The notes beneath the pieces are model-generated. The model saw only the letters and a program-made list of their open reading frames with translations. It was not told the DNA's origin and ran no database searches. A program made the translations under genes and the position numbers. Source: Stramenopiles sp. TOSAG23-2 (lineage: Eukaryota). From it: a stretch of DNA of 39,521 nucleotides. Where the stretch lies: positions 1 through 39,521 of the forward strand of contig LT649312.1 in NCBI GenBank assembly GCA_900128395.1. The letters are read 5' to 3'. This document shows, piece after piece, positions 1 to 30,037 of this stretch (positions are counted from its first letter, which is position 1; every line of letters begins with the position of its first letter).

Positions 1-2322
1 CGTAATAATGGTAAAAATAATAATAATATGACATTGAAAGGATACGTGAATCAAGTCGGTAAAGATAGTTATGGTGAGACATATAGTACACCTTTAGAAA
101 TAGCAACAGACCAAGCCATTATTGATTATCTATTCTCCATTCTATTAGATGGAGAAGTAATAGATGGAGATAGTTATTATAGTTATTATAGTTTGTATAA
201 GGAAGCATTTCCACGCGGTACACCATTAGCATGTGCATGTGAAAAAGGACGTTTGGATGATGTGAAATTATTGATTACAAGCCATGATGTGAATGGTAGT
301 AAAATGACATTGAAAGAATACATAAATCAAAAAGGTAAAAGTAGCAATGGCGAAGAATGTACACCTTTAATAATAGCTGCACAGACAGTAGCAAAGTATT
401 TCATCGAGATCATATATCCAGATGCATCTAAATTAGAAAAGAAGTATTATGCAGAATTTCGACAAGGTACACCATTAGTATGTGCATGTCAAGAAGGACG
501 TTTACAGGATGTGAAATTATTGATTACAGGCCATCGGGTGAATCAAGAAGGTAAAAATAGTTCTGGTATAAGATGTACACCTTTACAGATAGCAACAGAC
601 CAAGCCATTATTGATTATCTATTCTCCATTCATTTAGATGGAGTAACACTTAATACAAATACATTGACTGGTGTATATAAAAACGAATTTCCGCGTGGTA
701 CGCCATTAGTATGTGCATGTGAAAAAGGACGTTTTGAGGATGTGAAATTATTGATTATAGGCCATGATGTGAATGGTAGTAATGGTAATAATAATAATAA
801 TATGACATTGAAAGAATACGTGAATCAAGTCGGTAAAACTAGTCGTGGTAATGATTATACACCTTTACTGATAGCTGCAGAGAACAAACATTTCCAAATA
901 GTTAAATATTTAGTTGAGATCATTTATCCTCATGCATCTAAAGTAGAAAAGAAATATTATGCAGAATCTCCAAAAGGTACGCCAATAGTATGTGCATGTG
1001 AAAAAGGACGTTTTGAGGATGTGAAATTATTGATTACAGGCCATGATGTGAATGGTAGTAATGGTAATAATAATATGACATTGAAAGAATACGTGAAGAA
1101 AGTCGGTCAATGTAGTGATGGTTATGACTATACACCTTTAAAAATAGCTGCAGAGAATAAACATCAAGACATATTAGACTATTTGGTAGATGCTGCATAT
1201 GCTGATGAAACTGAGATAGTAAGGAAATATAAAAAAGAATTTCCAGACGGTATGCCATTGGTATGTGCATGTGAAAAAGGACGTTTGGAAGATGTGAAAT
1301 TATTGATTACAGGCCATGATGTAAGAACAAGTGGTATGACATTGAAAGAAATGATAAATCAACCAGGTACAACTGGTGAAGGTGTTCGTACACCTTTAAG
1401 AGCAGCTGCAGAGAACAACCACCTAGAAATTATTGAATATATTGTAGATAGTGTATATGCTGATGAAACTGAGTTATTTCGAAAGTATAAGAAAGAATTT
1501 CAAGGTAATGTATTAGTATGTTTATGTGAGAAAGGACGTTTGGATGATGTGAAATTATTGATTGAAGACCATGATATGAATGGTAGTACAGATATTGGTA
1601 ATAGTATGACATTGAAAGAATATGCAAATCAAGTTGGTATAACTAGTAGAGATTGTTCTGAGCAAACACTAACACCTTTAGAAGCAGCTGCAAAAAACAA
1701 ACATTTTCACATAGTAGATTATTTAGTTGATATTATATATGAAATAAGAGATTTAAATTTGTTGGTCAAAAAATATATGAAAGAATTTCCAGAAGGTACG
1801 CCATTAGTATGTGCATGTGAAGAAGGACGTTTTGATGATGTGAAATTATTGATAACATGCTATGATGTGAATGGTAGTGATGGTAACAATATGGCATTGA
1901 AAGAAATGGTGAATCAAAAAGGTAAAAACAGTTGGGGTGGTGAATGTAAACCTTTGAGAATAGCTGCAGAGAAAGAACATTTTAAAATAACAAAGTATTT
2001 AGTCGAGATTGTTTACCCAGATGCAACTAAATTAGAAAAGAATTATTATATATATTATGGTGGCACGCCTTTGGTATGTGCATGTGAAAAAGGACGTTTG
2101 GATGATGTGAAATTATTGATTGAAGACCATGAGGAGAATGGTAGTAATGGTAATAATAATAATATGACATTGAAAGAATACGTGAATCAAGTCGGTATAG
2201 ATAGTGAAGGTGATGAACATACACCTTTAAGTGCAGCTGCAAATAATGAACATTTCCAAATAGTTAAATATTTGATTGAACAATGTGAAGCTGATCCTAA
2301 TATACGTGAATCAAGTCGGTAA
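1..2322 (+). CDS. 5' part of giant ANK-kinase-WWE-PARP/Nudix gene: tandem array of paired ankyrin-repeat units (5'-truncated by window edge)
   Basis: Frame is open from base 1. It has 8 near-constant repeats (TPLVCACEKGRL/FEDVKLLI) alternating with variable repeats (VNQVG-x-TPLxxAA). A 124-bp imperfect duplication (2178-2301 / 2302-2427) shifts the frame into the next ORF. Confidence 0.85.
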   Translation, partial: RNNGKNNNNMTLKGYVNQVGKDSYGETYSTPLEIATDQAIIDYLFSILLDGEVIDGDSYYSYYSLYKEAFPRGTPLACACEKGRLDDVKLLITSHDVNGSKMTLKEYINQKGKSSNGEECTPLIIAAQTVAKYFIEIIYPDASKLEKKYYAEFRQGTPLVCACQEGRLQDVKLLITGHRVNQEGKNSSGIRCTPLQIATDQAIIDYLFSIHLDGVTLNTNTLTGVYKNEFPRGTPLVCACEKGRFEDVKLLIIGHDVNGSNGNNNNNMTLKEYVNQVGKTSRGNDYTPLLIAAENKHFQIVKYLVEIIYPHASKVEKKYYAESPKGTPIVCACEKGRFEDVKLLITGHDVNGSNGNNNMTLKEYVKKVGQCSDGYDYTPLKIAAENKHQDILDYLVDAAYADETEIVRKYKKEFPDGMPLVCACEKGRLEDVKLLITGHDVRTSGMTLKEMINQPGTTGEGVRTPLRAAAENNHLEIIEYIVDSVYADETELFRKYKKEFQGNVLVCLCEKGRLDDVKLLIEDHDMNGSTDIGNSMTLKEYANQVGITSRDCSEQTLTPLEAAAKNKHFHIVDYLVDIIYEIRDLNLLVKKYMKEFPEGTPLVCACEEGRFDDVKLLITCYDVNGSDGNNMALKEMVNQKGKNSWGGECKPLRIAAEKEHFKITKYLVEIVYPDATKLEKNYYIYYGGTPLVCACEKGRLDDVKLLIEDHEENGSNGNNNNMTLKEYVNQVGIDSEGDEHTPLSAAANNEHFQIVKYLIEQCEADPNIRESSR

Positions 2323-5137
2323 AACTAGTGATGGTTGGCCATGTACACCTTTAACGATAGCTGCATGGTTCGAACATTTCCAAATAGTTAAATATTTGAT
2401 TGAACAATGTGAAGCTGATCCTAATATTGCAGATAGTGATGGATGGAATGCATTACATCATGCAGCAGGTCATAACAAAACAAATACTGATGTGATTAAA
2501 CTATTATTAATTCATATGACTTTTGTTAGTATTGTGAGTGAAACCCGAGACGGGGGATCATACAGTCCCACATACTGTTGTTTTGAATATAATTTCAGCC
2601 CAATTCGAGAAGCAATTATTGCACTTATAGATAATTGTGAAATCAACGGATATATTGATAATGATATTCACCCTGAACGATATGTATATATAGCCTGTTC
2701 AAAAAATCCAAAAGAATATATCAGTTTATACAATGGTTTACCAAATGATCATCAAAAATTAATCAAGAAAAATCTTCACTCTCTTATACCATCCGTAAAT
2801 TGTTATGCTAATTTATTGCAACAAACATTAAAGGATAATGTTGATGTTAAATTTCACATTTCACCATCACAAATAAACATAGAAGTTAGGAAAATGGAAA
2901 TACAATATGAAAAAGTTGTTGAATTGCAAAAGCAATATTATGAGCTAAATAGCAATATTAATATTGATAACTGTAATGATAATGCTTCAATTATTGAACG
3001 AAACAAGGCTAGAGAAAAATATCACAAACATGCCAATGCATACATAAATATTATGAACAATAATTCATTTGCTGAAGCATATATTAATTATCTTAGCCAG
3101 GCATATAGAACACTTACAATTGTTAATGATATTATGAAAACAAACTTTTATTTTTTTGGACCAAATACATTATCAGATAAACACAAAGAGAAACTCAAAA
3201 AATGTATCATAGAAGCAGGTCTAGATGATAACGACGACGGCAACGACATCGATGATGATGAAAGCGCTTTACCAATGAAAATTAAAATGGAAATGTTGGA
3301 TGCAATAAAAAAAGACAATATTGACAATTTTCAAAACTTAATAACTGAATATTCAACCCGTTTATCCAATGATTATGTAATTAATGAATTGAAAGAAGAA
3401 GCAAAAGCGGCCAATAACACACCTGCTATAGAGTTAATCCAGGAATGGTGTAATGAATTTATGGATGTAAATGCAGATATGGCATCAAGTGACAATAATA
3501 ATGATCAAGAAGCCAGTATTGAAAATATTACGTTAGATATTAGTACCGACAAGGATGGAGCAGACAATGTAGGTAGCGCCACAAACATATTAGACTATAA
3601 TTGTTTACACGAGAGATTTCACCATTTTCAAAGCAATTTTACTAGTTTATTTGCAAAAATTAGCAAAGACTCAACCAACGACATAACAGTAGAATTCATG
3701 GGAAATTTGTTAATGAAAGTGAACAAATTAATTATATATGCAACGGTATTCATGGATGAGATAAAATCATCTATCGATATAATAAAAGTATTATTAGATG
3801 AATTTGATGTATGCAAATTGAAGTATGAACAATGGAAGGAAATAGTAACGAAATTTGCTATTGTAGATGACAACAGCAATGCAACCTTCAATTGGGAATA
3901 CGTATATGAGTTTAATTGGGACCAAGTATATCAGGAGTTTAAAGAAAAAAAAAAACAATTTAAGAAATTATTGAAAATGTTAAAACATGCAAAACTAAAT
4001 ATGGATGACCGTGACGAAGATGATGACGAGCAAGAATTAGAAAATAATTTAAACAAAGCCAGGGACGACGTGAAGAAAGCATCAGACGAATTAAACAAAC
4101 AATCATTGGAACTTTTAAAAATTGGACGAGAACATTTTAGGGAAATAATACTACAATTTGGCAAGAAGATAGCCCTTGGAGGATTTAATGATGTAGGAAC
4201 TGTTTGGAAAGCAATTTATCATAAAGATTTGTTTGAGAAAGATGCAGCCCCGAAGAATCATCTCCAATCATTAAATGTGGTAGAGTTTGTTAAATTCAAA
4301 AATAAAAGTTATGTGCTAAAAAAATATAATTTGATAGATGACAAAACACGAAGAGGGTTTCGTCGAGAAATAAGAACTCTGTTGAGATTAAATCATCCAA
4401 ATGTTGTGTCTGTAAATGCAGCATTTCAACAAGTTGAAAAAGAAAAATTTTCAGGTGGGACACTCGAAAAATATTCTGGTTTCATACTCATGCCACGTTA
4501 TCAGAATGGTGATCTATTGCAATGGTTAGATGATAAACGGCCGAGTGTTTATCAAGTACGTGTTGTGCTTCAAGACGCACTTCGTGGTATTGCCGCGTTG
4601 CATAAGGAAAATATCATACATTGCGATATAAAACCAAAAAATATATTTGTTGATGCAAATGAGAATGGTTACATTGGTGATTTTGATGTAAGTCTAGATA
4701 AAAAAAGTAGAACAATGGCATCAAAATTGCGAAGTACGTCCATGGCAACAGGATTTAAAGGTGGTACCTGGGAATACATGGCACCAGAAATAAAGCAAGA
4801 AACAAACGCTTCTAATGCAACCTATTTTTCCGATATGTATTCTTTTGGAAAGTCTCTAAAAGAAACGTTACAAATTGCAAGTAAGATGGAAGTAAACGAG
4901 AAGAAATCGGACATGGATTCACAAAATCCTCAGACAACAACAAATGATAATGAAGAAGATCAAAGTCAAAAAAATATTTTAAAATTTGTAAAAGCACAGC
5001 GAGAAAAATTGGACGAAGCAAGAAATGATTTAATACTCAAATTGATGGATAAAGAGCCGGAAAAGCGAGGGAATGCAAATGATGCGTTAAATCATCCATA
5101 TTTTGGAAAAGCTGTAGCCGAACATCAAAACAAACAG
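2276..5137 (+). CDS. Middle part of giant gene: final ankyrin repeats, helical/coiled-coil region and Ser/Thr-type protein kinase domain (about 4270-5105)
   Basis: ANK motifs TPLTIAA and GWNALHHAA. Kinase motifs VLKKY, RRE helix C, HCDIKPKN, GDFD (DFG variant), GTWEYMAPE, SDMYSFG, HPYF. Ends at splice donor 5138. Confidence 0.85.
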
Positions 5138-5209
5138 GTATGTAATATTTATATATAAACCAATTTTATTAATACTAACATGTTTATTTTTGCATAATCA
5201 TATATACAG
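5138..5209 (+). other. 72-nt spliceosomal intron, phase 0, joining the kinase ORF to the PARP ORF
   Basis: CAG|GTATGT donor at 5138, TACTAAC branch point at 5173-5179, CAG| acceptor at 5209. Splicing is in frame (HQNKQ|DKELEKS) and removes the stop at 5156-5158. Confidence 0.9.
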
Positions 5210-7473
5210 GATAAGGAATTGGAAAAGAGTATAACGCACATTTTAAGCCTTCGCCAAGCCGAAGCAGATCGTTTAAGTGAATTTGTGCAATGGGGATATA
5301 CAAACCAAAATACTAAGTTTATTAAGTTGAACCATCAACATAATTACATTGTTGAAGAATCGTATCGGAAATGGAGAAGGTCGGGTAATGTTGCTACGGT
5401 TGATCTGGATGAAAATTCAATTGATAAAACATTTTATAATTATAAAACTAGAGACATTGATACTATGAATCACCGACGTTTGTATTCTATTTTTTTTGAG
5501 AAACATAAGCAGGCTTCAAACAATGGCGCAAACTTTTCTTGTAGTGGACATTGTTTTGAAAACAACAATAGTTTGATTCAAACGTTTGTGAGAAAAGATA
5601 CTGTTGCTGAATTACGATTTAGTTTAAAAGAAAAGGAAGAAGAAATTGCTGCACTCAAGGCAAAAATAGGTAGACTAGAGGCAGAGCTTGCAAAGACTAA
5701 ATCGTTATTAAAAAATACGCAAAAGGAATTGAAGGACAAAGATCGTCTTTTGAAAAAAACGCAAAGGGAATTGAAGGACTGTTACAATGAACTTCAAAAA
5801 AAAGAAGAAAAACTGAATTTACAAAAGAAACTCTATAAGAACAAAGATCGTCTTCTAAAAAAAGCACGTTCGCAAATGCGAGGGGATAGAAGGAAATTAC
5901 GCCCATTTGCTATGCCACCATATTGGAGGACGCATTTATTAGGTGAAACAAAGCCAAAACATTACAATACTGAATTTATGAAGAAAAAAATGGAAGAGTT
6001 GATACGAAAAACAAGTGTATTTAAAACAACAGATAAAGCTAAAGTGATAAAAGTTGAACGAGTGGAATATCCAGCATTATGGGCTAGTTACTGTGGCATG
6101 GCCGAGCAAACGCGTAAACGTCATGCAAAGGTATTGAAAAAAAATGAACATAGTTTGAAAATGAAGATGGGACAGAAACCTATAACATATAGACTTCCAA
6201 AAGATCGAGGAGGTAGAAGGGCTCCCTTATATACTATAACAACAACTAATATACGTAGTAATTATGATCGATCAAAAGTCTCTAAGACTTATAAAGGTGC
6301 TGGTATTCTCCCATATGCAATCGATAAAAATGGCACAATAAAAGTTCTATTAGGTCGAATAAATTATGGGATTATGGAACCATATGCCGACTTTGGTGGC
6401 CTGCGTGATCCTGGTGAAGATAGTACAAAATTTACTGCATCACGTGAGTTTACAGAAGAAACACAAGAGTTATTTAAGCACAATCAAGCAGAGACAATAG
6501 CTATGTTAGAGAACGAGAATACGAACAATGTTGTGAGGATACATAATGAATCTGCCCATTATGTTATGTATATGCTAAAGGTCGACTTTAATAAGTATCC
6601 TAAACATTATAAACAAGCACTGGAAACACCATCAAAATTGAAACATAAAATAGAATTATCAGAAATGAAATGGATTCCGTTAAAAGATATCATTAAAGCA
6701 GTCAAACAAGCCAAAAATAAAGGGCACTGTTACGATGTTGCCGTGAACAATGATAAGGAAATTATTTTAAGGAAAGAATTAGTTGACACATTGATTATTG
6801 CATATGACGGAGGTATTTTGGATAAAATAGTGAAAAAATCTTACTCTAGTATATCCAGGAAAAAAATATCTGCATCTATACAATATCCATTGTTTCAACT
6901 TGATACGCGTATTAATGAATTTTATTTATGGCATGGAACGAGTGCAGAGTCTGCTAAAATTTTGACCAGCACAGGCCTGCCAACAGAACACCTTGCTGGT
7001 TCAAACTCTGGTGCATTATATGGCAATGGAATGTATTTTGCTGAAAATTCTTCAAAATCCGATCAATATACACAGCCAGGTCGTCAAGGTCGTCGCGTTT
7101 TATTACTATGCCGTGTGGCACTGGGGAAAATATTTTACACGCCAAAAGCGTTGATAGGATTAAAACATCCTGGCCCTGGATGCAGTAACAAGTTTAAAAA
7201 CTTAAAGTCGACGCAAGGTGCTAAAAAGTTAGGTAGTGCTCTATTTGACTCCATTGTAGCAGATGGAAAAACGAATCGTTTTGGTGCAAAACAGATACAC
7301 CGAGAATTTGTAATATTTGATGCACAAAGATGTTATCCTGAATTCATAGTTTTGACTCCATTGTAGCAGATGGAAAAACGAATCGTTTTGGTGCAAAACA
7401 GATACACCGAGAATTTGTAATATTTGATGCACAAAGATGTTATCCTGAATTCATAGTATGGTACAAACACTAA
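5210..7473 (+). CDS. 3' exon: WWE-like domain, coiled coil, tankyrase-like PARP catalytic domain with inserted Nudix hydrolase
   Basis: WWE-like QWGY..IVEESY..YSIFFEKHKQ (about 5280-5530). PARP motifs PPYW, KVERVEYPALWASY, NEFYLWHGT, GMYFAENSSKSDQY, LLLCRVALG, HREFVIFD, YPEFIV. Nudix box GGLRDPGEDSTKFTASREFTEET at 6395-6463. As assembled it stops at 7366; collapsing the 107-bp duplication gives YPEFIVWYKH* ending at 7473. Confidence 0.85.
7244..7457. repeat. Exact 107-bp tandem duplication (7244-7350 / 7351-7457)
   Basis: Two identical copies read directly; it disrupts the PARP C-terminus. Confidence 0.95.
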
Positions 7474-7499
7474 ACACACTAAACACTAAACATGCATAG

Positions 7500-7943
7500 G
7501 TGTATTATTTATGGCATGGAACGAAGGCAGTGTTTGCTAAGATTTTGACAAGTACAGGTCTGCCAACAGAATACCTGGCTAGTTTAGGTTCACTATATGG
7601 CTTGGGAATGTATTTTGCTGAAAATGCTTCGAAATCGGATGAGTATGCAATATCTAAACAACCTGGACCAGGTCATGGAGTACTCTTGTTATGCCGTGTC
7701 GCATTAGGCAAAATATTTTACACGCCCGCAGGATTAAAAGGTTTAAAACATCCTGGCCCTGGATGTGGCTCTATGTTTGAAAAATTGGAGTCAACACAAG
7801 GTGGCAAAAAATTAGGCAGTGTTCTTTTTGACTCAATTGTAGCAGACAGAAAAAGTAGGGGCAGGTCACAGCATCATTGAGAGTTTGTTATATTTGATGC
7901 ACAAAGGTGTTATCCTGAATTCATTGTGACGTACAAACGCTAA
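7500..7943 (+). pseudogene. Second PARP catalytic core copy with in-frame TGA just before the catalytic Glu
   Basis: YYLWHGT..GMYFAENASKSDEY..LLLCRVALG..QHH*EFVIFDAQRCYPEFIVTYKR*. TGA 7878-7880 aligns with CGA (Arg) 7301-7303 of the first copy. No ATG or N-terminal PARP part. Confidence 0.8.
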
Positions 7944-8142
7944 AGACACGTTTTTTAGAATATCGTTATTTTTAGAATATCGTTAATCATATAACGCTTC
8001 GTATGTTCTATTCAATATCTAACTGTCTTACACTGGACATTATTTGCAATGTCTGGTTGTCTGCTTATTTATTATCGGAGGAGATGATGGTAATGTTGGT
8101 AGTGGCAATAATTCCGAGAATGTACGAGTAGAATATTATTGT

Positions 8143-8352
8143 TGAAATATATATGTTTGATCCAAGTCGATTTTATTTGTTTTGAAAAGCATACATGTGT
8201 GGGGAGTTTATGAATTCGGAATTCGGTGTGGAGAAGAATCTAAAATCTGAAATATATATGTTTGATCCAAGTCGATTTTATTTGTTTTGAAAAGCATACA
8301 TGTGTGGGGAGTTTATGAATTCGGAATTCGGTGTGGAGAAGAATCTAAAATC
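8143..8352. repeat. Exact 105-bp tandem duplication (8143-8247 / 8248-8352)
   Basis: Two identical non-coding copies. Confidence 0.95.
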
Positions 8353-8611
8353 TAAAATCTAGTACGTATACGTATATGTGGTTAAAATCTAAAAGTTATG
8401 AGTGAGTTACTGAACCTGGTGGACAGGCGTATGACGGTGCTAAATTGACCTAGTAAAAAAGTAGTGTAAGAAAAAATTAAGTATAAACCATCCCCGAAAT
8501 CTTCACGTTTGAAAGTTAGCGAATATAGTATTATGCTGAGCACATGAGCACATGAGCAATGAGCACATGCGCTCACTGATTCTATAGCGATTAGTATACT
8601 ACAGCTCTTAT

Positions 8612-9748
8612 TCAAAATATAAAACTATTAATAAGTATAATAATCATATTTGTATCAAATTATATATCGGATATTTATTATAATAATTTTAAAGTGATAA
8701 AATACTGGAATTTTGGGCATGAAATCAATTTGATGAAAAATGAAAATCCGAGAATCATGATTTCATACCCAAAATTCCAGTATTTTATCACTTTAAAATT
8801 ATTATAATAAATATCCGATATACAATTTGATACAAATATATGATTATATAGTTATTAATACTATTATATTTTGACTATATAATTCCATAATTAAAAAACC
8901 AAGGTATACGACATAACAATACTGGAATTTTGGGCATGAAATCATGATTCTCGGATTTTCATTTTTCATCAAATTGATTTCATGCCCAAAATTCCAGTAT
9001 TTTATCACTTTAAAATTATTATAATAAATATCCGATATACAATTTGATACAAATATATGATTATTATAGTTATTAATACTATTATATTTTGACTATATAA
9101 TTCCATAATTAAAAAACCAAGGTATAGAAATAATGCATTTACTTACGGAAAATATTTTCACCTGAAATCTTGTTTTTAGTGCTATGTAGTGCTAAAGCCC
9201 TGGGCTGGCCCAGTCTGTGCATTAATTACTTACGGAAAATTTAGCACTACATAGCATTAAAAACAAGATTTCAGGTGAAAATATTTATCGTAAGTAAATG
9301 CATTATTTCTATACCTTGGTTTTTTAATTATGGAATTATATAGTCAAAATATAATAGTATTAATAACTATAATAATCATATATTTGTATCAAATTGTATA
9401 TCGGATATTTATTATAATAATTTTAAAGTGATAAAATACTGGAATTTTGGGCATGAAATCAATTTGATGAAAAATGAAAATCCGAGAATCATGATTTCAT
9501 ACCCAAAATTCCAGTATTTTATCACTTTAAAATTATTATAATAAATATCCGATACATAATTTGATACAAATATATTATTATTATAGTTATTAATAATATT
9601 ATATTTTGACTATATAATTCCATAATTAAAAAACCAAGGTATAGAAATAATGCATTTACTTACGGAAAATATTTTCACCTGAAATCTTGTTTTTAGTGCT
9701 ATGTAGTGCTAAATTTTCCGTAAGTAATTAATGGACAGACTGGGCTAG
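8612..9748. repeat. Nested inverted-repeat (foldback/MITE-like) complex: one 544-bp palindrome and two partial copies
   Basis: 9205-9748 is a near-perfect palindrome centred on a 32-bp spacer (9461-9492). 8918-9196 is the reverse complement of about 9240-9520. About 8612-8908 is a further partial hairpin around the same spacer (8727-8758). Confidence 0.9.
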
Positions 9749-10686
9749 TGTAGCTAGCTGGGCTAGCTAGCCACGATTGATTTTTAATTTTTTGTCGCGT
9801 TTTTTAGAAAATTATTATTCTAATTATATGCACATCAAAAAACCTTTTTAGATGAGTTCTGGGAGTTACAAAATCCCATTCTTGCTGATTTCAAACCATG
9901 AAATAAATATCCGATTATTTAAAATAAATTACAAGAAACAATTAAAAAGATTGTAAGATAATCCAAAATAATTACATGAAGGGAGGAGTAATTGATTAAA
10001 TATAATTGATTATTATTGATATATATATTTTGGATATCATAATATTTCATATTTCTCATACGTGTAAAACGATCCTTCCAGTAGTAGTGTATAAGTTGAA
10101 ATAAAAATGATTATTAAAATTCCAAATAGCATTTTTAGCATTGCACAGCACAGGAAATCACCACCACCACCATCATCAAACAGCAATCTGGCAATCCAGC
10201 AATCACGATCCCAATAATAAAACTTAAAAAAAAATGTATTATTTTTTATATTATTTTATTGCATGCTGGATTGCAGTTGCTATTTGCTATAATATTAATA
10301 TTAAAATATCTATGAGGATGAGGGATCTTCTCGTGTGTGCACATAATAGTTTGCACTGGTTTTCATGACATATTAAGCCAGGTCTTAGACTTTTCAAGGA
10401 AAATAAAAATATACGTATATTCTCTTTGAATATTATTTATTTCTTTGTTTTATTAAAACGATAGTAAATTCTTTTTGTATACATATAATCGAAATAATTA
10501 TTTATATAAAAGAAATATTTAATATTTAGTATTAATAAATTTATATTTTGTTTATATCTATAATCGTTGGCTATTATAGGGTATACTTATAAGAAAACGA
10601 ATTTGTATCAATAAAGATATAATAGTATAATAAACGTTGCTATTTTTAAACTATCTAAAATATCTTTTTTTTTTACATTTGCGAAT

Positions 10687-13600
10687 ATGGCTGAAGTTAT
10701 AAATCCTGGACAAAAAGGTGGACAGGAAGATAGCTCAAAGCCCATCATTTGCTTAGCAGGTTGGTTTTATACTGATGAAAGCAGAACTTGGAAATCCTTT
10801 ATTAAACACCCAGATCTCGAAAATATACTAGAAAAATATGGTATAACAGTGAATAATCGCGTCCCAAAAAAAAAAAAAGAGTGTGACTTTTTATTAGTAA
10901 GTGAAGGGAATCCAGAAGATGAAAGAAAGGACAGCAAGGGAAAAAAATATTATTATAGGAATATAGCGCGAATAAAAATAAAAAGTAGCGAAACCAATCC
11001 TCAACAAAGTGATGAAAAACAAATTTGGATAGATGGATCGGATAAGTATGAAGCTGCAAAAAAATTAGGCATCGAAATAAAACACGACAAGGATGCACGT
11101 GCATACATTCAAGAATTGTTGAGTAATTCATATGAGATACATGAGTTAACAAAGGAGGGAACAGATGATGTGTGGCAAATAAGAAGATATGGACAATTTT
11201 TAATACACCTTTGGAAGCACAAGAAGCATACAATTATCCGTGGAATCGTTGCATTTGATAATGCAAAGAAGAAGATGGACGAGCTTGTCAAAGAAAAACG
11301 AAAAGAAGGATATGATGATATTGATAAAAACGAAAACTCGGAGTTCATAGGTCCCTCAAAACCATTCAAGTGCTCATCATTTCCACAAATAACGCCATTT
11401 TTATCTACTAAACAGAAAAATGAAAGAATTAAAGTATTTATACAAGATATTAAAGATTGCACGAAAAATAATTTTAAATTCAATATTATCATGAGTGATC
11501 TTGGGATGTTTGTAGAAATATTTTTACTGGAATTAAAGAAGTGTAAAAATAATAAGAAACTACAACGTATAAAAAATGGCATCAAAGAACAATTCAATCG
11601 TTTAGTGGAAGTTGCGAAGGAAAAAAAAAATACAGAAAAAGAAGGCAAAGATTGGTATTTTCTTTTAATACTTTTTCCTATGATCATAGCAATGGACGAA
11701 AACGAAAAAAACTATATACTTCAAAGGGATATGAAACGCATTGAGAACCAATATTACAACAGAAAATCTAAAACAGAGTCTAAAAAGGACAAATCACGTC
11801 AGGTTCCTAAGGAGCCTACTCATGACGATATGTATAAAACACATATACTTTCATGTAACCAACAAGAAAAGTTTAAAGAGCTACAACAGAAATTCAAAAA
11901 CTCAAAATCTATAGACAAAGTAGAAATAAAAAATTTTCATAAAGCTATTCGTGAGTCCATATCCCTAAAAACACTACAGAAAATGATTAAGTATATGAAG
12001 ATTAAAACGGACATAGCCGACATAGCCGAAATCCATAGCAATGAAGATGCGAAAAAAACAGAAATTACTGAAGACATAGTTGGTTTTGAATCAATCGATC
12101 CAGACGGTGGTTTGTTCACCAAAGCACCAATGGAAACTTCTAACAGTGGTGTCAACAACTTTTGCGCAGCATTCAGCTGCTGCTTTACAAGTCAAAAAAA
12201 CAATTATGTAAATTTTGTTCGCATTGGTATACTTATTCTCGAAGCAATTCCACAAATATTCAGGTTTGCTTTTGTGCACCGATGGAACAATTTATACCCG
12301 CATTTCGAGTTTAAAATAAAGCAAGCAGAAAGTGGGCGTCGATTAGTTGATGGGGGGGATGTAATTCGTAGGGCATCTAATGAAAAGTGGACAATTAGTA
12401 GGATTCAGCAGCATCAGGTAAAAAAGAGGTTTTATACATGTATCATGAGTGAGGATCTCAAAACAGAACTCACGGGCCGTATACAAAACTTAAAAAGAGG
12501 CGATGGTGAAGTATGCCTGGTTTTTCATGATACAGATAATTTCAAATATTTAAAAGCGCAGCATATTATAAAGATAGAAGAGAAAGAAAACCTCATTAAT
12601 TCCAATGATAAGACACTGAAATTTGAGTATAAATTCACATCAATTATTCTTATGACCTTCAACGATTTAATCGTTAATAAAATATTTGAAAATACGTATG
12701 TAACTAAAAAAAAAGAAAAAGAATATGAAAAAACGTACCTATGTGAAAAATTGCTTTTGGAAAATCTTTTGAAAACCACGCTTGAAAAATCCAGTGAGCA
12801 AGTTGACATTGTACATCGTATACCTGGACCAAATTGGGACAAAATTAAAGGTAAAACCATTGATGAAAATAGTAAACATCTTTTCGAAAACGCCATGATT
12901 GATGACTTAGATGTCACATGCATGAATGCCATTTTTAAAAATATAGGGGGCCTTTGTGACATGAAATCAGATCAATTCAACAAAGGGGAAAAGGAGAGAA
13001 AAAAATTGTACAAAAACAAGAACATTACGACTTTTGAAGCTTGGATAGATAAGGTTGGTGAATCAAACATTTCACCAGAAGTTATTCTTAATGAATTAAA
13101 ATTTATACGCAATAAAAAATTAGCACATCGTCATAGTACTAAGGTGCCTGACAAAGAATGGCGATATTGCAAAGAACTGTTTTTATATTTTTTGGGTATA
13201 TTGATAGAAAACAAATGGCTCAGCAAAGAGGAGGTCACAAAATTAAAAAAAAAAGTTAAAGAGGCAGAGGCTGTTAATATGAGCGACGGTATGAATACCG
13301 TGGAAAACATCCAAAGTAGAATGGAAACATTATTTTCAAATATTGACACGCAAGTAAAGGAATTTGAAAAAAACGTATCAAAGGTAAAGAAGGACGCACA
13401 ACAATTTGGAGACATAGTATCAAAGGCAGGTGATGATACACAGAGATTGGGAAAAGTTGTAACGAAGTTTGAAAAATTCGCAAGTTGCTTCGAAGATATG
13501 ATAAAAGTGTTGAATCTCAACAGTAATAATGATATAATAAAAAATGAAGAACGAAAAAATGACATGCAGAAACCTGTGAGTGATAAGATTAATTATAGCA

Positions 13601-16600
13601 ATGATTCTGGTGAAATAATTCATATAATAGTGGCCCAATTATTACTTTTAACTAAGCTAGCCGAAGGAGACAATGTTAGTAGAGAAAAACAATCCGATTT
13701 GGCCAGGAATCTAAAAAGGGCTTTGAACCAAGTGATGGATATAAGGAAAGATGTATCTTCTGGATGGTACCGCGCTTTAGACCTTCCTTCCATATTAGCT
13801 CCAATGAAAACATTAGCATTAAAATTAAATGCTATCTCATTGACAAATCCCGGAATGAATACAACATCATCACCAACAACAACAATATCATCAGATTCTA
13901 TATCCTCTGTTACAGGGCTTATTTATTTATGCATACCAAATATTGAAAAAGATAAATATGAAAATGTTAATATTCAATTTTTATTAGAAGCACAACATAT
14001 ACAACAATTTACAGGTGCAAAACTTTATCAAGGGAATTATGAAACGTTTTTAGAAACAATTGACTCACATGAAAATCAATCTATCAAATGGATACATTTT
14101 ATTGGACATGGTGGTAAAAATACATTTGGACGTGATTTAGGACTTGTATTAGCCGATGATAAAGGAAATTTAGAACATATTGAAGATGAACGTTTAATAA
14201 AAACATTGCGTACACGTACAACGCAACTCGAATTAGTAACATTTAATGCATGTTCTACAAGTAAATTAGTGGCCGCAATAACAAAACAAAATGGAGTGAA
14301 ACATTCATGGGGATGGTCAACAAAATGCCATGGTTATGCTGCAGCTATTATTGGAAAATGGTTTTATTATCATCATATAGTATTAAAGAAGTCCGTATTG
14401 GATGCATTTGAATGTGCAAAAAGTTATGTTGATGTAAAAACAAAAGTGATTGGAAAAGGTGTTGATAATGTTCTCATTTCAGAGGAACAATTTGTATTTG
14501 GTGATCCATCGAAAAAAACAAAAATTGATAACATGGATGTAGCTGGTATACCATTATTACTAAATAACAAATGGCAAGATAAATTTCCATATGCCTGGTA
14601 TGCACTTTCATATAAAAAAACATGGTCGAAGAAAATTCATAATAATAAATTTAATGAAGTGTTATATTATGTTTGTAGCAATGAAAATGAAATTTGCACT
14701 GTAACGGGCATACGTGGATGTGGTGGTGCAGGTAAAACTGTACTTTGTTTACAATTGGCTCAAGATCCGTTGATCTATTCGACATTTAAACACGGTGTTG
14801 TATATATCAAAGCAGGACAAGAAGCAAGACCGCTTAATATATTAAAACAATGTTTTAAACAATTGAAAGAGGACAAGAAATTAATTAAATTAAATATAAA
14901 GGATGAAAAAGATTATGAAATATATCTTGATGGAGAGAAAACGTTTGGGGTTGACGATGAAACAATGACGCGAAATTGGGTCAATGATAAAAAGTTAAAG
15001 TGGTTAGTTGAAAAATTACAGCAATATTTGCAAGGCATAGATTTACATGCTGTTGTTATTATTGATGATGTTTGGTCCGACAAGTGTTTTGATCACTTAA
15101 CTTCAATAATACAAGCAAAGGCATGCAATTCGCGTATTGTTATATCAACAAGAAATAGTACCATATTGGAAGGTAAAGATAAAAAAGAATTTTGTTTAGA
15201 TACATTAAATGAGACGGATGCCATTGATTTTTTCAAGGGGCAAACAAATGATAATGATAGTAATTGGAACGAAAACGACTTAAAAGATATTGTTAACAAG
15301 ACTGGCAAACTTGTCCTTTTTCTCTCCATATTAGCAAAAAAAGTTAACTTTAAAAACTACGAAGATGGTGGTTTAAATCGTATACTAAAAGCATTAGATC
15401 CTAATCGATCGACATTAAGAAACACTTCAATTGGATTAAAAAAAATCTTCAATAAAGCAGAAGATGATGTAGCATATGGAAAATCTGCATTAGCTTGCTT
15501 ATCAATTGGTGTTGATTTTATTGAAGATGATATTCAAGATGATCAAGGTAAAGAGGTACAAAATAAATATATCATGTTGGGTATATTTCCTGAAGATAGT
15601 GAAATATCATATGAAGCATTAAAGGTATTATGGAATTTTGATGATATAAATTATGTCGAAGAACATGTTGAATATTTTTCTAATCAATCTCTTTTAGTTA
15701 ATAATCGAACAGGTAAATATATTAAAATGCATAATTTACAGTGTAGATATGTGATTGAACGTTTGAAGGAAGATAATGATGGTATTGAAATTGATCAATT
15801 ACTTAAAATTATAGCAAGTACCATGGTTGAATTTCCAAATGCTTTTAAGGATTGTGTTGAAACGACCAACATTATTTGTTCATCGATTATATGTGCATGC
15901 GAGAGAGGGCGTTTGGAAGATCTCAACATATTGCTTGAAGCTAAGGATAGTGTTAATAAATTCGGCAAAAGCATTCGTGGTCATGAATGTACACCTTTAA
16001 TGGCAGCATGTGTATGTGGGCATTTAAAAATCGTAGAATTGCTATTGAGTAAAGGTGCTGATGTTTTACAAGCAGAAAGTCGATTTGGTTGGACTGCTTT
16101 GCATTGGACTATATTATGTGAACCAAAACCAGACGAATATATCCAGATAATAAATAAGCTTTTGGAGGTAAAAGCAGAAGCATTAGTAAATCAAAGAACA
16201 CGGCAAGGGGAAACTGCGTTAGATTGTGCAAGTAACAGACTTGATTCTGTTGAATTTTGTGAATTATTGAAAATGAAAGGGGGGAAACGAAGGGTCGAAT
16301 TAGAAGAATATACGAGGAAAGCTGAGCGGATAAATTACTTGTTTGAGGCGGTAAAAGATGATGATATGATAAGCATTTACATAGGTGAGCTAACTAATGG
16401 TGATGAAAATAGTGTACTAGAACATTATGTGGATGATAATGGCAATAATCTGCTTCATCATGCTGCAATGCATAGTAAAAATGCCGATACAATGAAATTA
16501 TTATTACAACACACGTTGTTAGAGGAAGCTGTATTTAAAAACGAAATCACAAAAAAGACACCATTAGATGTTGCAAAGGAACGTAAGAAAAAAAACGACG

Positions 16601-17031
16601 AAACAGAGATTAAAAACAAAATTACTAAAAAGGCGCCATCGGAAATTGAAGTTATGATTGCATTGTTAATGAAAACCAAATACGTAAAAGATTTATATGC
16701 AGCTGTTAAAAATGATAACCAGGCTTCAATAATAGAATGCATAAAGCAGCTCGATAGTCTAGCTTTAATACTGTATGGCAAGGGTGAAAAGATTATACTA
16801 GGGCATTATTTGAATGATGCTTGCAATAATCTGCTTCATCATGCTGCAATGCATAGTAAAAAGGCCAGTACAATGAAATTATTATTACAATACATGTTGT
16901 TAGAGGATGCTGTATTTGAAAACAAAATCACGAAAAAGACACCATTACAGGTCGCAGAGGAACGGAAGAAAGAAAACGACGGAACAGAGATTAAAGAGAT
17001 AATTACATTGTTAAAGATGAAATTTGAGTAG
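10687..17031 (+). CDS. STAND NB-ARC (APAF-1-like) NLR-type protein: BRCT - WGR-like - HEPN - coiled coil - CHAT protease - NB-ARC - ankyrin repeats
   Basis: BRCT: IICLAGWF..LENILEKYG..GSDKYEAAKKLGI. WGR-like: RRYG..AKKKMDELVKEKRKEGY. HEPN: NFVRIGILIL..FRFAFVHRW, DLDVT, RNKKLAH (13108-13128). CHAT: HFIGHG (His 14107), FNACS (Cys 14251). Walker A GCGGAGKT (14716-14739), Walker B VVIIDDVW, sensor ISTRN, MHN (15727). ANK: TPLMAACVCGH, GWTALHW, GETALD, NLLHHAA twice. Confidence 0.88.
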   Translation: MAEVINPGQKGGQEDSSKPIICLAGWFYTDESRTWKSFIKHPDLENILEKYGITVNNRVPKKKKECDFLLVSEGNPEDERKDSKGKKYYYRNIARIKIKSSETNPQQSDEKQIWIDGSDKYEAAKKLGIEIKHDKDARAYIQELLSNSYEIHELTKEGTDDVWQIRRYGQFLIHLWKHKKHTIIRGIVAFDNAKKKMDELVKEKRKEGYDDIDKNENSEFIGPSKPFKCSSFPQITPFLSTKQKNERIKVFIQDIKDCTKNNFKFNIIMSDLGMFVEIFLLELKKCKNNKKLQRIKNGIKEQFNRLVEVAKEKKNTEKEGKDWYFLLILFPMIIAMDENEKNYILQRDMKRIENQYYNRKSKTESKKDKSRQVPKEPTHDDMYKTHILSCNQQEKFKELQQKFKNSKSIDKVEIKNFHKAIRESISLKTLQKMIKYMKIKTDIADIAEIHSNEDAKKTEITEDIVGFESIDPDGGLFTKAPMETSNSGVNNFCAAFSCCFTSQKNNYVNFVRIGILILEAIPQIFRFAFVHRWNNLYPHFEFKIKQAESGRRLVDGGDVIRRASNEKWTISRIQQHQVKKRFYTCIMSEDLKTELTGRIQNLKRGDGEVCLVFHDTDNFKYLKAQHIIKIEEKENLINSNDKTLKFEYKFTSIILMTFNDLIVNKIFENTYVTKKKEKEYEKTYLCEKLLLENLLKTTLEKSSEQVDIVHRIPGPNWDKIKGKTIDENSKHLFENAMIDDLDVTCMNAIFKNIGGLCDMKSDQFNKGEKERKKLYKNKNITTFEAWIDKVGESNISPEVILNELKFIRNKKLAHRHSTKVPDKEWRYCKELFLYFLGILIENKWLSKEEVTKLKKKVKEAEAVNMSDGMNTVENIQSRMETLFSNIDTQVKEFEKNVSKVKKDAQQFGDIVSKAGDDTQRLGKVVTKFEKFASCFEDMIKVLNLNSNNDIIKNEERKNDMQKPVSDKINYSNDSGEIIHIIVAQLLLLTKLAEGDNVSREKQSDLARNLKRALNQVMDIRKDVSSGWYRALDLPSILAPMKTLALKLNAISLTNPGMNTTSSPTTTISSDSISSVTGLIYLCIPNIEKDKYENVNIQFLLEAQHIQQFTGAKLYQGNYETFLETIDSHENQSIKWIHFIGHGGKNTFGRDLGLVLADDKGNLEHIEDERLIKTLRTRTTQLELVTFNACSTSKLVAAITKQNGVKHSWGWSTKCHGYAAAIIGKWFYYHHIVLKKSVLDAFECAKSYVDVKTKVIGKGVDNVLISEEQFVFGDPSKKTKIDNMDVAGIPLLLNNKWQDKFPYAWYALSYKKTWSKKIHNNKFNEVLYYVCSNENEICTVTGIRGCGGAGKTVLCLQLAQDPLIYSTFKHGVVYIKAGQEARPLNILKQCFKQLKEDKKLIKLNIKDEKDYEIYLDGEKTFGVDDETMTRNWVNDKKLKWLVEKLQQYLQGIDLHAVVIIDDVWSDKCFDHLTSIIQAKACNSRIVISTRNSTILEGKDKKEFCLDTLNETDAIDFFKGQTNDNDSNWNENDLKDIVNKTGKLVLFLSILAKKVNFKNYEDGGLNRILKALDPNRSTLRNTSIGLKKIFNKAEDDVAYGKSALACLSIGVDFIEDDIQDDQGKEVQNKYIMLGIFPEDSEISYEALKVLWNFDDINYVEEHVEYFSNQSLLVNNRTGKYIKMHNLQCRYVIERLKEDNDGIEIDQLLKIIASTMVEFPNAFKDCVETTNIICSSIICACERGRLEDLNILLEAKDSVNKFGKSIRGHECTPLMAACVCGHLKIVELLLSKGADVLQAESRFGWTALHWTILCEPKPDEYIQIINKLLEVKAEALVNQRTRQGETALDCASNRLDSVEFCELLKMKGGKRRVELEEYTRKAERINYLFEAVKDDDMISIYIGELTNGDENSVLEHYVDDNGNNLLHHAAMHSKNADTMKLLLQHTLLEEAVFKNEITKKTPLDVAKERKKKNDETEIKNKITKKAPSEIEVMIALLMKTKYVKDLYAAVKNDNQASIIECIKQLDSLALILYGKGEKIILGHYLNDACNNLLHHAAMHSKKASTMKLLLQYMLLEDAVFENKITKKTPLQVAEERKKENDGTEIKEIITLLKMKFE
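16420..16997 (+). repeat. Internal duplication of a C-terminal ankyrin unit (about 16420-16615 and about 16803-16997)
   Basis: HY(V/L)..NNLLHHAAMHSK.A.TMKLLLQ..LLE.AVF.N.ITKKTPL.VA.ERKK.ND.TEIK occurs twice with high DNA identity. Confidence 0.85.
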
Positions 17032-28012: not shown

Positions 28013-30037
28013 ATGCCGGAACCACAAATTGGGGATCGTGTACGTGTCATAGGACGTAATGCAATACATGAAGGTACATGCAAATATTTTGGGACCACAT
28101 TATTTCGTGAAGGATATTGGGTTGGTGTTGCATTAGACTATCCAAATGGTAAAAATGATGGTTGTGTAGAAGGTACCAGGTATTTCAATTGTAGACCTAA
28201 TTATGGTTTATTTGCTAGGGTGCAAGTTGTTGAAATATTACAAACAAGGCAACAAATTCAACAACGACAAGTGCAGCAGCAGCAACAGCAGCAACAGCAA
28301 CAACCACTAGCACAAATGCAACAACAACAACAACAACAATCACGACAAAACAATGGTTTATCAACAACCTCATCCTCCCCACCACTACGTATTAAATCAT
28401 TAGGTGGACAACTACGAGTAAAATCAAATATATTTCGATTTGAAAAGGTTCGAAATGAATGGTCAGAAATTGGAGATGGGTATGTTAATTTATATGTTGC
28501 AATGAGTGAAAGAAATGTTCCACGTGTTACACTTCAAGGTGCACGTAATAATCTTGGAATTGTTAATCATTATATTGAAATTGAGACAAAACTTGAACCA
28601 AATGTTGGTAGTGATCGTGCTTGGGTATTTCGTGCAAAAACATTACAAGATGATAAAGGGGAAGTATTAGCTTTGCAATTTCAAACACCAAAAGATGCAA
28701 TGGATTTCTCATCACATTTTGCTCGTTCTTGTCAAACAGTTCGACAATACAGAACAAAAGGTAGCAATAGTAATAATAATAGTATCAATAATAATAATAT
28801 CAATAATAATAATAATAATAATAATAATGCAGCACCACCACCAGCTCCACAATCTAATAATAATAATAATAACAATAATAGTAATGGTCAAATGGCACCA
28901 CCACCACCACCACCACCACCACCAGAAGAAGAAGAAGAAGAAGAGGAGGAGGTGAGACAACGGAATAATTATAATAATGCAAATGGTGGTTTTACTACTA
29001 CTAATAGTAATGGTAACCTTTCGAAAAAAATTCAAAAACAACGAAGACGTTTAAGTATTGCTGGAAACGATGCACGTGCAGATGGTGTAGTACATCGTTC
29101 TTCCACAACAAATCCAAATGGAAATAAAATGGATACAAGGAAAAAAGGTGCAAATTTAAATGGTCAATTTCAAGCTACATCAAGCAACACTATTGTTAAA
29201 AGTTACATTGGTATGTCAAAAAAAGGATATGCACCATATAATATTAAAAAAGAAAACCAAGATGCATGTTTTATGCATGAGGATCCAATTACACAATCTA
29301 TTTTATTAGGTGTATTTGATGGACATGGTGAGCATGGACATCGTGTATCCCGTTACATAGAGCGCAATGTACCACCAGCCATTTTTAAGCATCCTAGCTG
29401 GAAAAGTACACCAAAAACGGCAATGACAACTGCATTATTATCCAAGGAGAAAGAAATATTGCAAAATCGATCGATCAATACATCGTTAAGTGGGACAACA
29501 GCAGTAGTTGCAACTGTACGTAAAAATATATTAACCGTAGCAAATATTGGAGATTCCAGATTGATATTAGCATTGAGAAATAATAAAAATCGTTTAAAAC
29601 CATGTAGTGTGACGGAGGATCATAAACCAGATTTACCAACGGAACAAAAAAGAATTGAACGAGCTGGTGGACGTGTATGGGCAATGACATATGATGATGG
29701 TGTAGATGGCCCTGCAAGAGTATGGTTAAAAGATCAAGAATTACCAGGCCTTGCCATGTCACGTAGTATTGGTGATGAAGTTGCAAAACGTGCTGGGGTT
29801 ATCTCCAATCCAGAAATATTTGAATATGAAGTACCAGAACAAGCTGCATTTTTATGTATGGCAACTGATGGTTTATGGGAATTCATGTCGGATGATGATG
29901 TAGTTCATATCATTGAACAAGCAAATGGGAATGGTAAATTAGCAATACAAACATTGATGAAAGAATCAGAACGAAGATGGAAAAACGAAGAGCCTGTAGT
30001 GGACGATACGACGGTAGTCATTGCATATTTTGAGTAA
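28013..30037 (+). CDS. CAP-Gly + RanBP1-like (RanBD/PH-fold) + PP2C protein phosphatase
   Basis: CAP-Gly WVGVALDYPNGKNDGCVEGTRYF. RanBD-like IFRF..EWSEIGDG..NHYI..LEPNVGSDRAWVF. PP2C NQDA, VFDGHG, SGTT, NIGDSR, DHKP, GLAMSRSIGD, ATDGLWE, DDTT. Confidence 0.88.
   Translation: MPEPQIGDRVRVIGRNAIHEGTCKYFGTTLFREGYWVGVALDYPNGKNDGCVEGTRYFNCRPNYGLFARVQVVEILQTRQQIQQRQVQQQQQQQQQQPLAQMQQQQQQQSRQNNGLSTTSSSPPLRIKSLGGQLRVKSNIFRFEKVRNEWSEIGDGYVNLYVAMSERNVPRVTLQGARNNLGIVNHYIEIETKLEPNVGSDRAWVFRAKTLQDDKGEVLALQFQTPKDAMDFSSHFARSCQTVRQYRTKGSNSNNNSINNNNINNNNNNNNNAAPPPAPQSNNNNNNNNSNGQMAPPPPPPPPPEEEEEEEEEVRQRNNYNNANGGFTTTNSNGNLSKKIQKQRRRLSIAGNDARADGVVHRSSTTNPNGNKMDTRKKGANLNGQFQATSSNTIVKSYIGMSKKGYAPYNIKKENQDACFMHEDPITQSILLGVFDGHGEHGHRVSRYIERNVPPAIFKHPSWKSTPKTAMTTALLSKEKEILQNRSINTSLSGTTAVVATVRKNILTVANIGDSRLILALRNNKNRLKPCSVTEDHKPDLPTEQKRIERAGGRVWAMTYDDGVDGPARVWLKDQELPGLAMSRSIGDEVAKRAGVISNPEIFEYEVPEQAAFLCMATDGLWEFMSDDDVVHIIEQANGNGKLAIQTLMKESERRWKNEEPVVDDTTVVIAYFE

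Follow-up and report, generated by a model that had tools for sequence, protein, structure and literature searches.

A tandem array of two-ankyrin units, each with a near-constant and a hypervariable half, in a marine eukaryotic contig

Why would a repeat protein hold one half of its repeating unit nearly constant and let the other half differ in every copy? The question is raised by the first 2,428 nucleotides (nt) of contig LT649312.1 (assembly GCA_900128395.1, deposited as Stramenopiles sp. TOSAG23-2), whose 39,521 nt analysed here are called the window. A preliminary description of this DNA had read positions 28–2427 as an ankyrin (ANK) array in which constant and hypervariable repeats alternate, joined by mosaic linkers, and had proposed unit shuffling or gene conversion together with diversifying selection. 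Our analysis suggests that the array is probably an array of recognition modules: the constant half would act as scaffold and as homology for recombination, and the face made of the β-hairpin and helix 1 would be a diversified binding surface.

The array comprises at least ten copies of a two-ankyrin unit of ~91 amino acids (aa), nine in frame 1 and a partial tenth in frame 2; because the 5′ end of the window cuts the array, ten is a minimum. Tandem Repeats Finder assigns a period of 273 nt to positions 697–2273 (5.8 copies, 70% matches). Pfam identifies ankyrin repeats in the open reading frame (ORF) 1–2319, with 225.8 bits for Ank_2 (cut-off 27.3, E = 6.3e-68) and 183 bits for Ank (cut-off 21.1, E = 9.7e-56), and the frame-2 ORF 2276–5155 likewise scores above the ANK cut-offs. 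With its stop codon, the frame-1 ORF covers 1–2322 of the + strand, on which all features of the array and its gene lie; it is open at the 5′ end of the window, runs from a partial first unit to the ninth, and closes with TAA at 2320–2322.

Units 1–10 of the preliminary description are here named U0–U9. U0 (1–216) has lost its constant ANK to the window start and carries the hairpin KDSYGETYS (61–87) and a subtype A linker region (ATDQAIIDYLFSI). U1 (217–465; hairpin KSSNGEEC, 337–360) belongs to subtype B (IIYPDASKLEKKYY) and has a helix region 4 aa shorter. U2 (466–696; KNSSGIRC, 553–576) has neither the asparagine run nor the MTLKEY segment; it is again of subtype A, and its helices are 100% identical in nucleotides to those of U0. 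U3 (697–975; KTSRGNDY, 835–858) is of subtype B, and U4 (976–1248; QCSDGYDY, 1108–1131) and U5 (1249–1503; TTGEGVR, 1369–1389) are of subtype C (YADETE..RKYKKEF). U6 (1504–1794) has a hairpin longer by 3 aa (ITSRDCSEQTL, 1639–1671), a linker type of its own (IIYEIRDLNLLVKKYMKEF) and a degenerate constant ANK (GNVLVCLC). In U7 (1795–2061; subtype B) the hairpin KNSWGGEC (1924–1947) is followed by KPL in place of TPL, and U8 (2062–2304; IDSEGDEH, 2197–2220) is of the terminal subtype E (IEQCEADPNI). The partial U9 (2303–2428, frame 2) consists of YVNQVG, the hairpin KTSDGWPC (2321–2344) and a second ANK. Two closing ankyrin repeats (2429–2641; ADSDGWNALHH.. and ..SPIREAIIALIDNCE) end the module, as they do in all family members. 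Thus the ten differing segments that had been listed between VNQxG and TPL are all present, nine in frame 1 and KTSDGWPC in frame 2. The recurrence of linkers was also described correctly, with ATDQAIIDYLFSI in units 1 and 3, YPxAxKxEKxYY in 2, 4 and 8, and YADETE in 5 and 6.

Each unit divides into two halves. The constant half contains one ANK (GTPLVCACEKGR.xDVKLLI.GHDVNGS), an asparagine run of variable length and the segment MTLKEYVNQxG. The variable half contains the hairpin tip, TPLxxAA and the helix pair of the second ANK, followed by a linker of one of few types. An AlphaFold2 model of U3–U5, computed from a 16-row alignment (mean predicted local distance difference test score 85.9, predicted template modelling score 0.78), shows in each unit the helix pair of the constant ANK, the low-confidence asparagine run, a short TLKEY helix and a strand–turn–strand, and then the second-ANK helix pair and a linker helix. 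The modelled strands (E46–47 and E53–54) have the variable segment as their tip and stand directly before helix 1 of the second ANK. No hairpin is predicted in the constant ANK, so the model has one hairpin per unit. A Foldseek search of the PDB returned ankyrin or designed ankyrin repeat protein (DARPin) chains for all 50 ranked matches (43 listed), with probability 1.0.

Variation is distributed very unevenly along this unit; an even spread with dN/dS below 1 had been named beforehand as an observation that would speak against the proposal, and an even spread is not seen. In the immediate flanks of the hairpin, per-codon nucleotide difference is 0–0.08 in most columns (M, L and K of MTLKE; N, Q and G; T, P and L), and at hairpin columns 47, 52, 54, 55 and 57 it is 0.47–0.68. 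Pairwise nucleotide identity is 75–98% in the constant ANK, 56–100% in the asparagine run with MTLKEYVNQxG, 30–100% in the helices and 33–71% in the hairpin. The earlier statement that the flanking DNA is nearly invariant therefore holds for the immediate flanks and the constant half, but not for the helices and linker, which vary like the hairpin: pooled synonymous (pS) and non-synonymous (pN) divergence within the array are 0.68 and 0.35 for helices, 0.44 and 0.46 for the linker, and 0.35 and 0.45 for the hairpin. Across 150 unique units of the wider family, the highest entropies (3.1–3.8 bits) fall at profile positions 46, 48, 50, 51, 52, 60, 65 and 73, where 46–52, 60 and 65 lie in the hairpin tip and at the start of the second-ANK helices. 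In the constant ANK, the corresponding positions of helix 1 (9 and 10) reach only 1.5 and 2.5 bits.

The wider family was reached by two routes. A scan of metagenome contigs for the conserved DNA of MTLKEYVNQ (29 nt of the constant half, matched exactly) yielded 17 loci, every one of which encodes the unit. Most of these hold a single unit, three genes hold two and three hold three (L004, L005 and L014), and in each gene the units lead into the closing pair of ANK repeats seen in the window. The module also turned up in protein searches, among EukProt, ENA, JGI and NCBI records. A unit profile run against 78 proteins, the ORFs of the 17 family loci and the window, leaving out L001–L002, gave 196 hits, 171 of them near-complete and 150 unique. 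The frame-1 ORF of the window has the most hits per ORF (9), followed by protein P0012 (7) and by P0016, P0021, P0023 and P0026 (5 each). Window position 2408 carries an alternative base (G for T) in 14 contigs of sequencing run X1 and 28 of run X2, indicating that many distinct near-identical copies exist.

Placed in this family, the recurring linkers lose the meaning first given to them. The subtype sequence ATDQAIIDYLFSILLDG.. also occurs in L012, L014, P0013 and P0016; IIYPHASKVEKKYYAEF is identical in P0017; and YADETE..RKYKKEF is found in L004, and P0012 has a sequence close to it (YTDSTELVRKYKKKF). What had appeared to be a local mosaic of linkers is instead a set of family-wide unit subtypes. 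The partners to which the module is fused are diverse: SAP and U-box in P0012, MORN and ubiquitin in L004 (both by Pfam), a kinase in P0042 and P0045 (precomputed Pfam), and CHAT with NB-ARC elsewhere in the window. The shared N-terminus of L003, L009 and L019 resembled an F-box, but Pfam gave no F-box at E ≤ 0.01. Given such varied partners, its likeliest role is that of an interchangeable recognition domain. A full-text literature search found no description of such a two-ANK family, and the genomics papers on marine stramenopiles in that search contained the word "ankyrin" 0 times.

The two halves of the unit have different histories. When eight of the ten units were compared (the partial U0 and U9 being left out), the left half (138 nt) rejected the tree of the right half (approximately unbiased (AU) test, p = 0.013), and the right half (156 nt) rejected that of the left (p = 7e-5). 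Identity is likewise mosaic. The constant ANK of U3 and U4 is 98% identical in nucleotides, and the asparagine run with MTLKEYVNQxG is 98–100% identical among U0, U3, U8 and U9, while no pair of hairpins exceeds 71%. Synonymous divergence of the constant ANK is low (pS 0.147 within the array, 0.215 between array and loci, 0.276 among loci), and the helices in the same comparisons show 0.45–0.69. In the gene pair L009–L003, pS is 0.445 in the N-terminal domain versus 0.12–0.15 in the ANK module. L019 (2487–3602, − strand) and L009 (3277–4194, + strand), from two metagenome assemblies, have N-terminal domains ~95% identical at non-synonymous sites; their hairpin and helix-1 residues differ, and L019 has exactly one extra unit of 81 aa. 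Taken together, the discordant trees, the mosaic identity, the low pS of the module and the extra unit support concerted evolution and unit shuffling, as the preliminary description had proposed under the name of shuffling or gene conversion.

Selection on the variable face was assessed with codon tests on 31 of the 39 units for which DNA was available, eight having been dropped for covering fewer than 66 of 80 codons. Parsimony counting at the hairpin tip (codons 45–52) gave N 175.8 and S 13.2, a non-synonymous to synonymous rate ratio (ω) of 2.76 and a binomial p of 2.7e-5, and ω of 0.73 for all non-hypervariable codons. We then fitted the GY94 model with F3X4 frequencies by likelihood on a fixed tree, in an implementation of our own that reproduces the IQ-TREE log-likelihood of the framework (−2542.78). 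Framework ω was 0.37. For 13 binding-face codons, ω was 2.0 when they shared the synonymous rate of the framework (likelihood-ratio test statistic (LRT) 67–78) and 2.5–3.2 when that rate was left free (LRT 10.8–15.8). At an uncorrected p < 0.05, a per-site test placed the non-synonymous rate above the synonymous one in 4 of 80 codons (48, 57, 60 and 61); each belongs to the hairpin or to helix 1, and the constant ANK has no such codon. The near-orthologues L009 and L019 differ by pS 0.118 and pN 0.053 in the N-terminal domain, and in the hairpin with helix 1 by pN 0.27 versus a pooled pS of 0.11 (Fisher p = 0.025). Diversifying selection thus has moderate support at the level of the family (ω ~1.5–3.2, depending on the model), but the array alone does not demonstrate it.

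These results would fit the following course of events. Positions 1–2428 are read as the 3′ part of a tandem array belonging to a large multigene family; its scaffold half hardly varies, synonymous sites included, and its linker helix comes in a small number of old subtypes. Hairpin tip and helix-1 face may together form the ligand-binding surface, and the constant half could supply 100–135 nt of 75–100% identical DNA as homology. Acting both inside single family members and between them, gene conversion and unequal crossing-over would then homogenise the scaffold and reshuffle both the display halves and the number of units, while codons of the binding face would evolve either free of constraint or by diversifying selection. 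The domains to which the module is fused, signalling or ubiquitin-related, vary; here they are apparently a kinase, Nudix and PARP.

The window copy itself is interrupted. At 2304/2305 (+ strand), where a second ANK of the terminal type ends (..EADPNI), the sequence jumps back to ..VNQVG, and ..CCTAATATA is joined directly to CGTGAATCAAG.. with a period of 124 nt. Since 124 is not a multiple of 3, frame 1 stops at 2320–2322 and reading continues in frame 2; for this reason the ten units do not form one open frame, the tenth lying behind the out-of-register junction. The two 124-nt copies, A (2181–2304, the end of U8) and B (2305–2428, U9), differ at 22 positions, 21 of which crowd into the 50 nt at 18–67 of the copy; the 17 and 56 nt that flank this stretch are identical. 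A and B are no simple duplication, and the clustering of their differences is a further point in favour of shuffling or gene conversion. A 30-mer spanning the junction has no second occurrence among the 19 loci examined. Rescue by an intron was considered and rejected: a strict GTAWGT..WACTAAY..YAG scan gave no match there on the + strand (on the − strand it gave one chance-like match, 2575–2501), and the GT..AG spans found near 2305 by eye, 14 and 23 nt, are not 1 modulo 3. The copy is either pseudogenised or rearranged, or the junction is a chimeric join.

Several results weigh against an array of diversified recognition modules. Once the synonymous rate is freed, the hairpin tip by itself falls short of significance (p = 0.066), and in one fit the model did no better than the null. 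The per-site tests carry no correction for 80 tests, and some of their rate estimates are numerically unstable. Within the array alone, hairpin pN/pS is 1.3–1.45 at a pS of 0.35, figures that come without a significance test, and pN/pS of the constant half is ~1.0, resembling neutral decay or very recent copies. All codon tests used a single tree despite evident recombination and relied on our own implementations, the helix-1 codon set was chosen partly after the entropies had been seen, and codon usage is AT-biased. The exact 29-nt pattern that retrieved the loci biases their synonymous conservation over a small part of the constant half. The Foldseek matches have TM scores of only 0.22–0.34 and a root-mean-square deviation of ~10–11 Å, so that the solenoid geometry is either non-canonical or mis-modelled. 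Owing to the frame break, the window copy may not make the protein described here.

Some of these points could also be read as ordinary repeat evolution, in which a framework under purifying selection surrounds an unconstrained hairpin with ω ~1 and the shared constant-half codons reflect recent duplication and codon bias. We regard this as possible but doubtful. Consistent with it, hairpin pN reaches a plateau of 0.41–0.45 in every comparison, as under saturation; ω above 1 hinges on the synonymous rate used, for by parsimony the hairpin has 3.2 synonymous changes per site, the helices 7.0, and hairpin non-synonymous change is 8.9 per site; the tip alone fails significance once that rate is free; and AT-biased codon usage would depress synonymous change at saturated codons. 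It accounts poorly, however, for non-preferred codons (GTG, TTG, GGC and CGT) that are identical across units in the constant half, for the significantly discordant trees of the two halves, and for a module pS 3–4 times below that of the N-terminal domain in L009–L003. The combined binding-face class also keeps ω of 2.5–3.2 with a free synonymous rate, and binding-face pN exceeds pS between L009 and L019. Targeted hypermutation of the hairpin, for example by a diversity-generating retroelement, would explain why the differences between U8 and U9 are sharply confined between identical flanks. We give it hardly any credence: Pfam finds a reverse transcriptase in none of 11 large ORFs, the host is eukaryotic (candidate intron, oomycete-like CDKL kinase), and paralogues from unrelated contigs vary at these hairpin positions too, as expected of germ-line divergence.

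A different doubt is whether the array exists as assembled. In a mosaic of assembly or amplification, which the preliminary description had itself named as a condition against its proposal, the units would be real but their order, the 2304/2305 junction, the link from array to kinase, or several of these would be artefacts, produced as an assembler or an amplification chimera passed through conserved modules of high copy number; a ten-unit array fused to kinase, Nudix and PARP would then be no single natural locus. We think this unlikely, though not negligible. We compared Logan contigs of four runs with window positions 1–6000, taking contig depth as a weak measure. A 5700-nt contig of run X1 matches 2658–6000 with 0 differences at a depth of 237.4, whereas the exact X1 contigs of the array (249–617, 1545–1834 and 1806–2100) have depths of only 7.35, 9.5 and 13.4. 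These leave 1–248, 618–1544 and 2101–2657 unmatched, and position 2339, in the U9 hairpin, is covered by no X1 contig of at least 90% likeness; such holes prove nothing. A further X1 contig, of depth 224.7 and so similar to the single-copy kinase contig, runs from a MTLKEYVNQVGKTS context through seven other letters to 2341 onward, and so places a different hairpin, one codon longer, before the TPLTIAAWF of unit 10 (window 850/2341); it may be either a paralogue or a variant of the window locus. The summed depths of 5,000–17,000 over conserved modules, versus 237, give no copy number. A mosaic would also agree with a junction that is out of register and unique among 19 loci, with other odd duplications in the window (the 107-nt tandem at 7244–7457 and the inverted repeats at 8646–9748), with the one to three units of the other genes on metagenome contigs, and with a window start that falls inside the array. 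Against it, the three exact X1 contigs cross unit boundaries, bridging U1/U2, U6/U7 and U7/U8. No exact repeat within the array is longer than 56 nt, so that reads or k-mers above this length could in principle resolve the order of units. Independent assemblies hold arrays of several units drawn from the same mixture of subtypes (P0012 with seven units, four proteins with five and three metagenome loci with three), and since an in-register walk through an assembly graph cannot yield an out-of-register junction, that junction must exist in some reads. Unit order and the array–kinase link are only partly backed by independent contigs.

An array of recognition modules remains the reading we prefer. 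A bolder version of it would make the constant ANK half a built-in recombination spacer that lets hypervariable hairpin cassettes be exchanged among many receptor-like genes (fusions with kinase–Nudix–PARP, CHAT–NB-ARC, U-box and ubiquitin/MORN among them), would make the family an ankyrin-based repertoire for innate immunity or non-self recognition that is independent of the NOD-like receptor (NLR) repeats of fungi, plants and animals, and would have unit number and hairpins differ between near-identical genomes (L009/L019; the alternative hairpin contig of X1). Taken jointly, these three propositions are rather improbable.

Beyond the array, the frame-2 ORF (2276–5158) continues from the two closing ANK repeats into ~550 aa without Pfam matches and then a protein kinase domain (4295–5104, + strand; residues 674–943, Pfam Pkinase E = 1.2e-31). 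A candidate spliceosomal intron of 72 nt, recognised by its motifs (5138–5209, + strand, phase 0; GTATGT..TACTAAC..CAG), is the sole strict intron-motif match on the + strand of the window, and its removal joins the kinase ORF in frame to an ORF encoding a coiled coil, NUDIX and PARP (5210–7366, + strand). The PARP catalytic domain (6905–7351) has a Pfam E-value of 5.6e-20; the NUDIX match (6392–6712) is weak (E = 5.1e-4), its 20.5 bits lying slightly below the cut-off of 21.1. To judge from the reading frames, 5210–7366 is probably the 3′ exon of the array–kinase gene. When metagenomes were scanned with the unique, kinase-encoding part of this gene, no relative was found. Cover by the metatranscriptome run X20 lies mainly over conserved modules and shows neither transcription nor splicing; in the unique part it is scattered and of low depth, for example a single 208-nt piece at 3553–3760.

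The 3′ end of the PARP ORF contains a perfect 107-nt tandem copy (7244–7457) that, not being a multiple of 3, alters the last residues. Just downstream, at 7500–7880, lies a second, diverged PARP-catalytic fragment with an open frame of 126 aa. In a gap of 24–30% GC content without long ORFs, nested direct and inverted repeats (8646–9748) have arms of 62–279 nt that are 96–100% complementary, with spacers mostly of 30–133 nt. This cluster may be a foldback element, or else an artefact of amplification or assembly.

Pfam assigns the neighbouring ORFs to CHAT, NB-ARC and ANK together; to C2; to LRR; to CAP-Gly, RanBP1 and PP2C together; and to kinase. The first, ORF 10687–17031, encodes 2114 aa in which ANK repeats, one unit of the family among them, accompany CHAT, NB-ARC and an APAF-1-like winged helix, an NLR-like architecture of the STAND (signal transduction ATPases with numerous domains) type with a caspase-like effector. 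A second ORF, 30588–31814 (408 aa), ends in a single family unit with the closing ANK repeats. Because both carry the unit, the family is present more than once in the 39.5-kb window. At 28013–30037, one ORF of 674 aa encodes the unusual fusion of CAP-Gly, RanBP1 and a PP2C phosphatase.

The same window informs on the host. Among named sequences, those most similar to a CDKL-type kinase at 32148–34868 come from oomycetes (65–67% identity), and other relatives reach 81–94%; together with the candidate spliceosomal intron, this kinase indicates that the host is a eukaryote. The window has partial matches in marine metagenome runs, and the host is an AT-rich, intron-poor marine eukaryote, possibly a stramenopile. 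A giant-virus origin was considered and rejected. Matches to the CDKL kinase in viral contigs reach merely 29–31%, and the conserved 33-mer was not found in viral contigs; a module search of viral contigs reported seven stretches encoding a relative and returned 0 loci. The motif AAAATTGA is of the mimivirus type; it occurs four times in 39.5 kb and 0 times in eight 200-nt upstream stretches.

Among described systems, fungal NLRs come closest, through their highly internally conserved ANK repeats (Dyrka et al. 2014, PMC4986451). The ANK, TPR and WD repeats of this type are reported to show concerted evolution, polymorphism in repeat number and positive selection on the binding face (PMC4986451). 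The family described here shares concerted evolution with shuffling within and between members, hypervariable positions in the β-hairpin and inner helix that make up the ANK binding interface, and combinatorial fusion to varied effector domains, the neighbouring gene combining CHAT, NB-ARC and the unit. It may also share differences in repeat number between close relatives, to judge from L019 and L009, metagenome contigs that could represent either alleles or species. It departs from the fungal repeats in having a unit of two ANKs to which a short helix and a linker helix are added, and of which only one half is conserved; in three-unit blocks that are 57–61% identical, versus a criterion of more than 85% over at least 100 aa; in an array attached to kinase, Nudix and PARP, without NACHT or NB-ARC in the part of the gene within the window; and in its host, a marine, probably stramenopile-like protist.

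Two further systems combine a fixed framework with variable contact positions. DARPin libraries have a constant ANK framework in which β-turn and helix-1 positions are randomised. Aligned on TPL..AA, profile positions 48, 50–52, 60 and 61 of our unit stand at places equivalent to the randomised DARPin positions. Unlike DARPins, the array is natural and keeps every second repeat constant; its hairpin exceeds theirs by 1–4 residues, long linkers separate its repeats, and globally the two superpose poorly (TM 0.22–0.34). The zinc-finger minisatellite of PRDM9, a single gene with a DNA ligand, has a conserved backbone, few hypervariable contact positions and unequal exchange. The array may be likened to it in conserved backbone, hypervariable positions and unequal exchange, as a functional analogy only; fold and ligand are different, and a large family takes the place of a single gene.

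Arrays of this kind are prime sites of assembly error, and the window copy alone should not be taken as a functional gene. If the pattern is real, the design known from fungal NLRs, with its conserved backbone, hypervariable binding positions and concerted evolution, would extend to a marine eukaryote of an uncultured type, with the new twist that scaffold and display repeats alternate. The family would then be a candidate receptor family for research on protist immunity and conflict, and one that is open to study in metagenomes.

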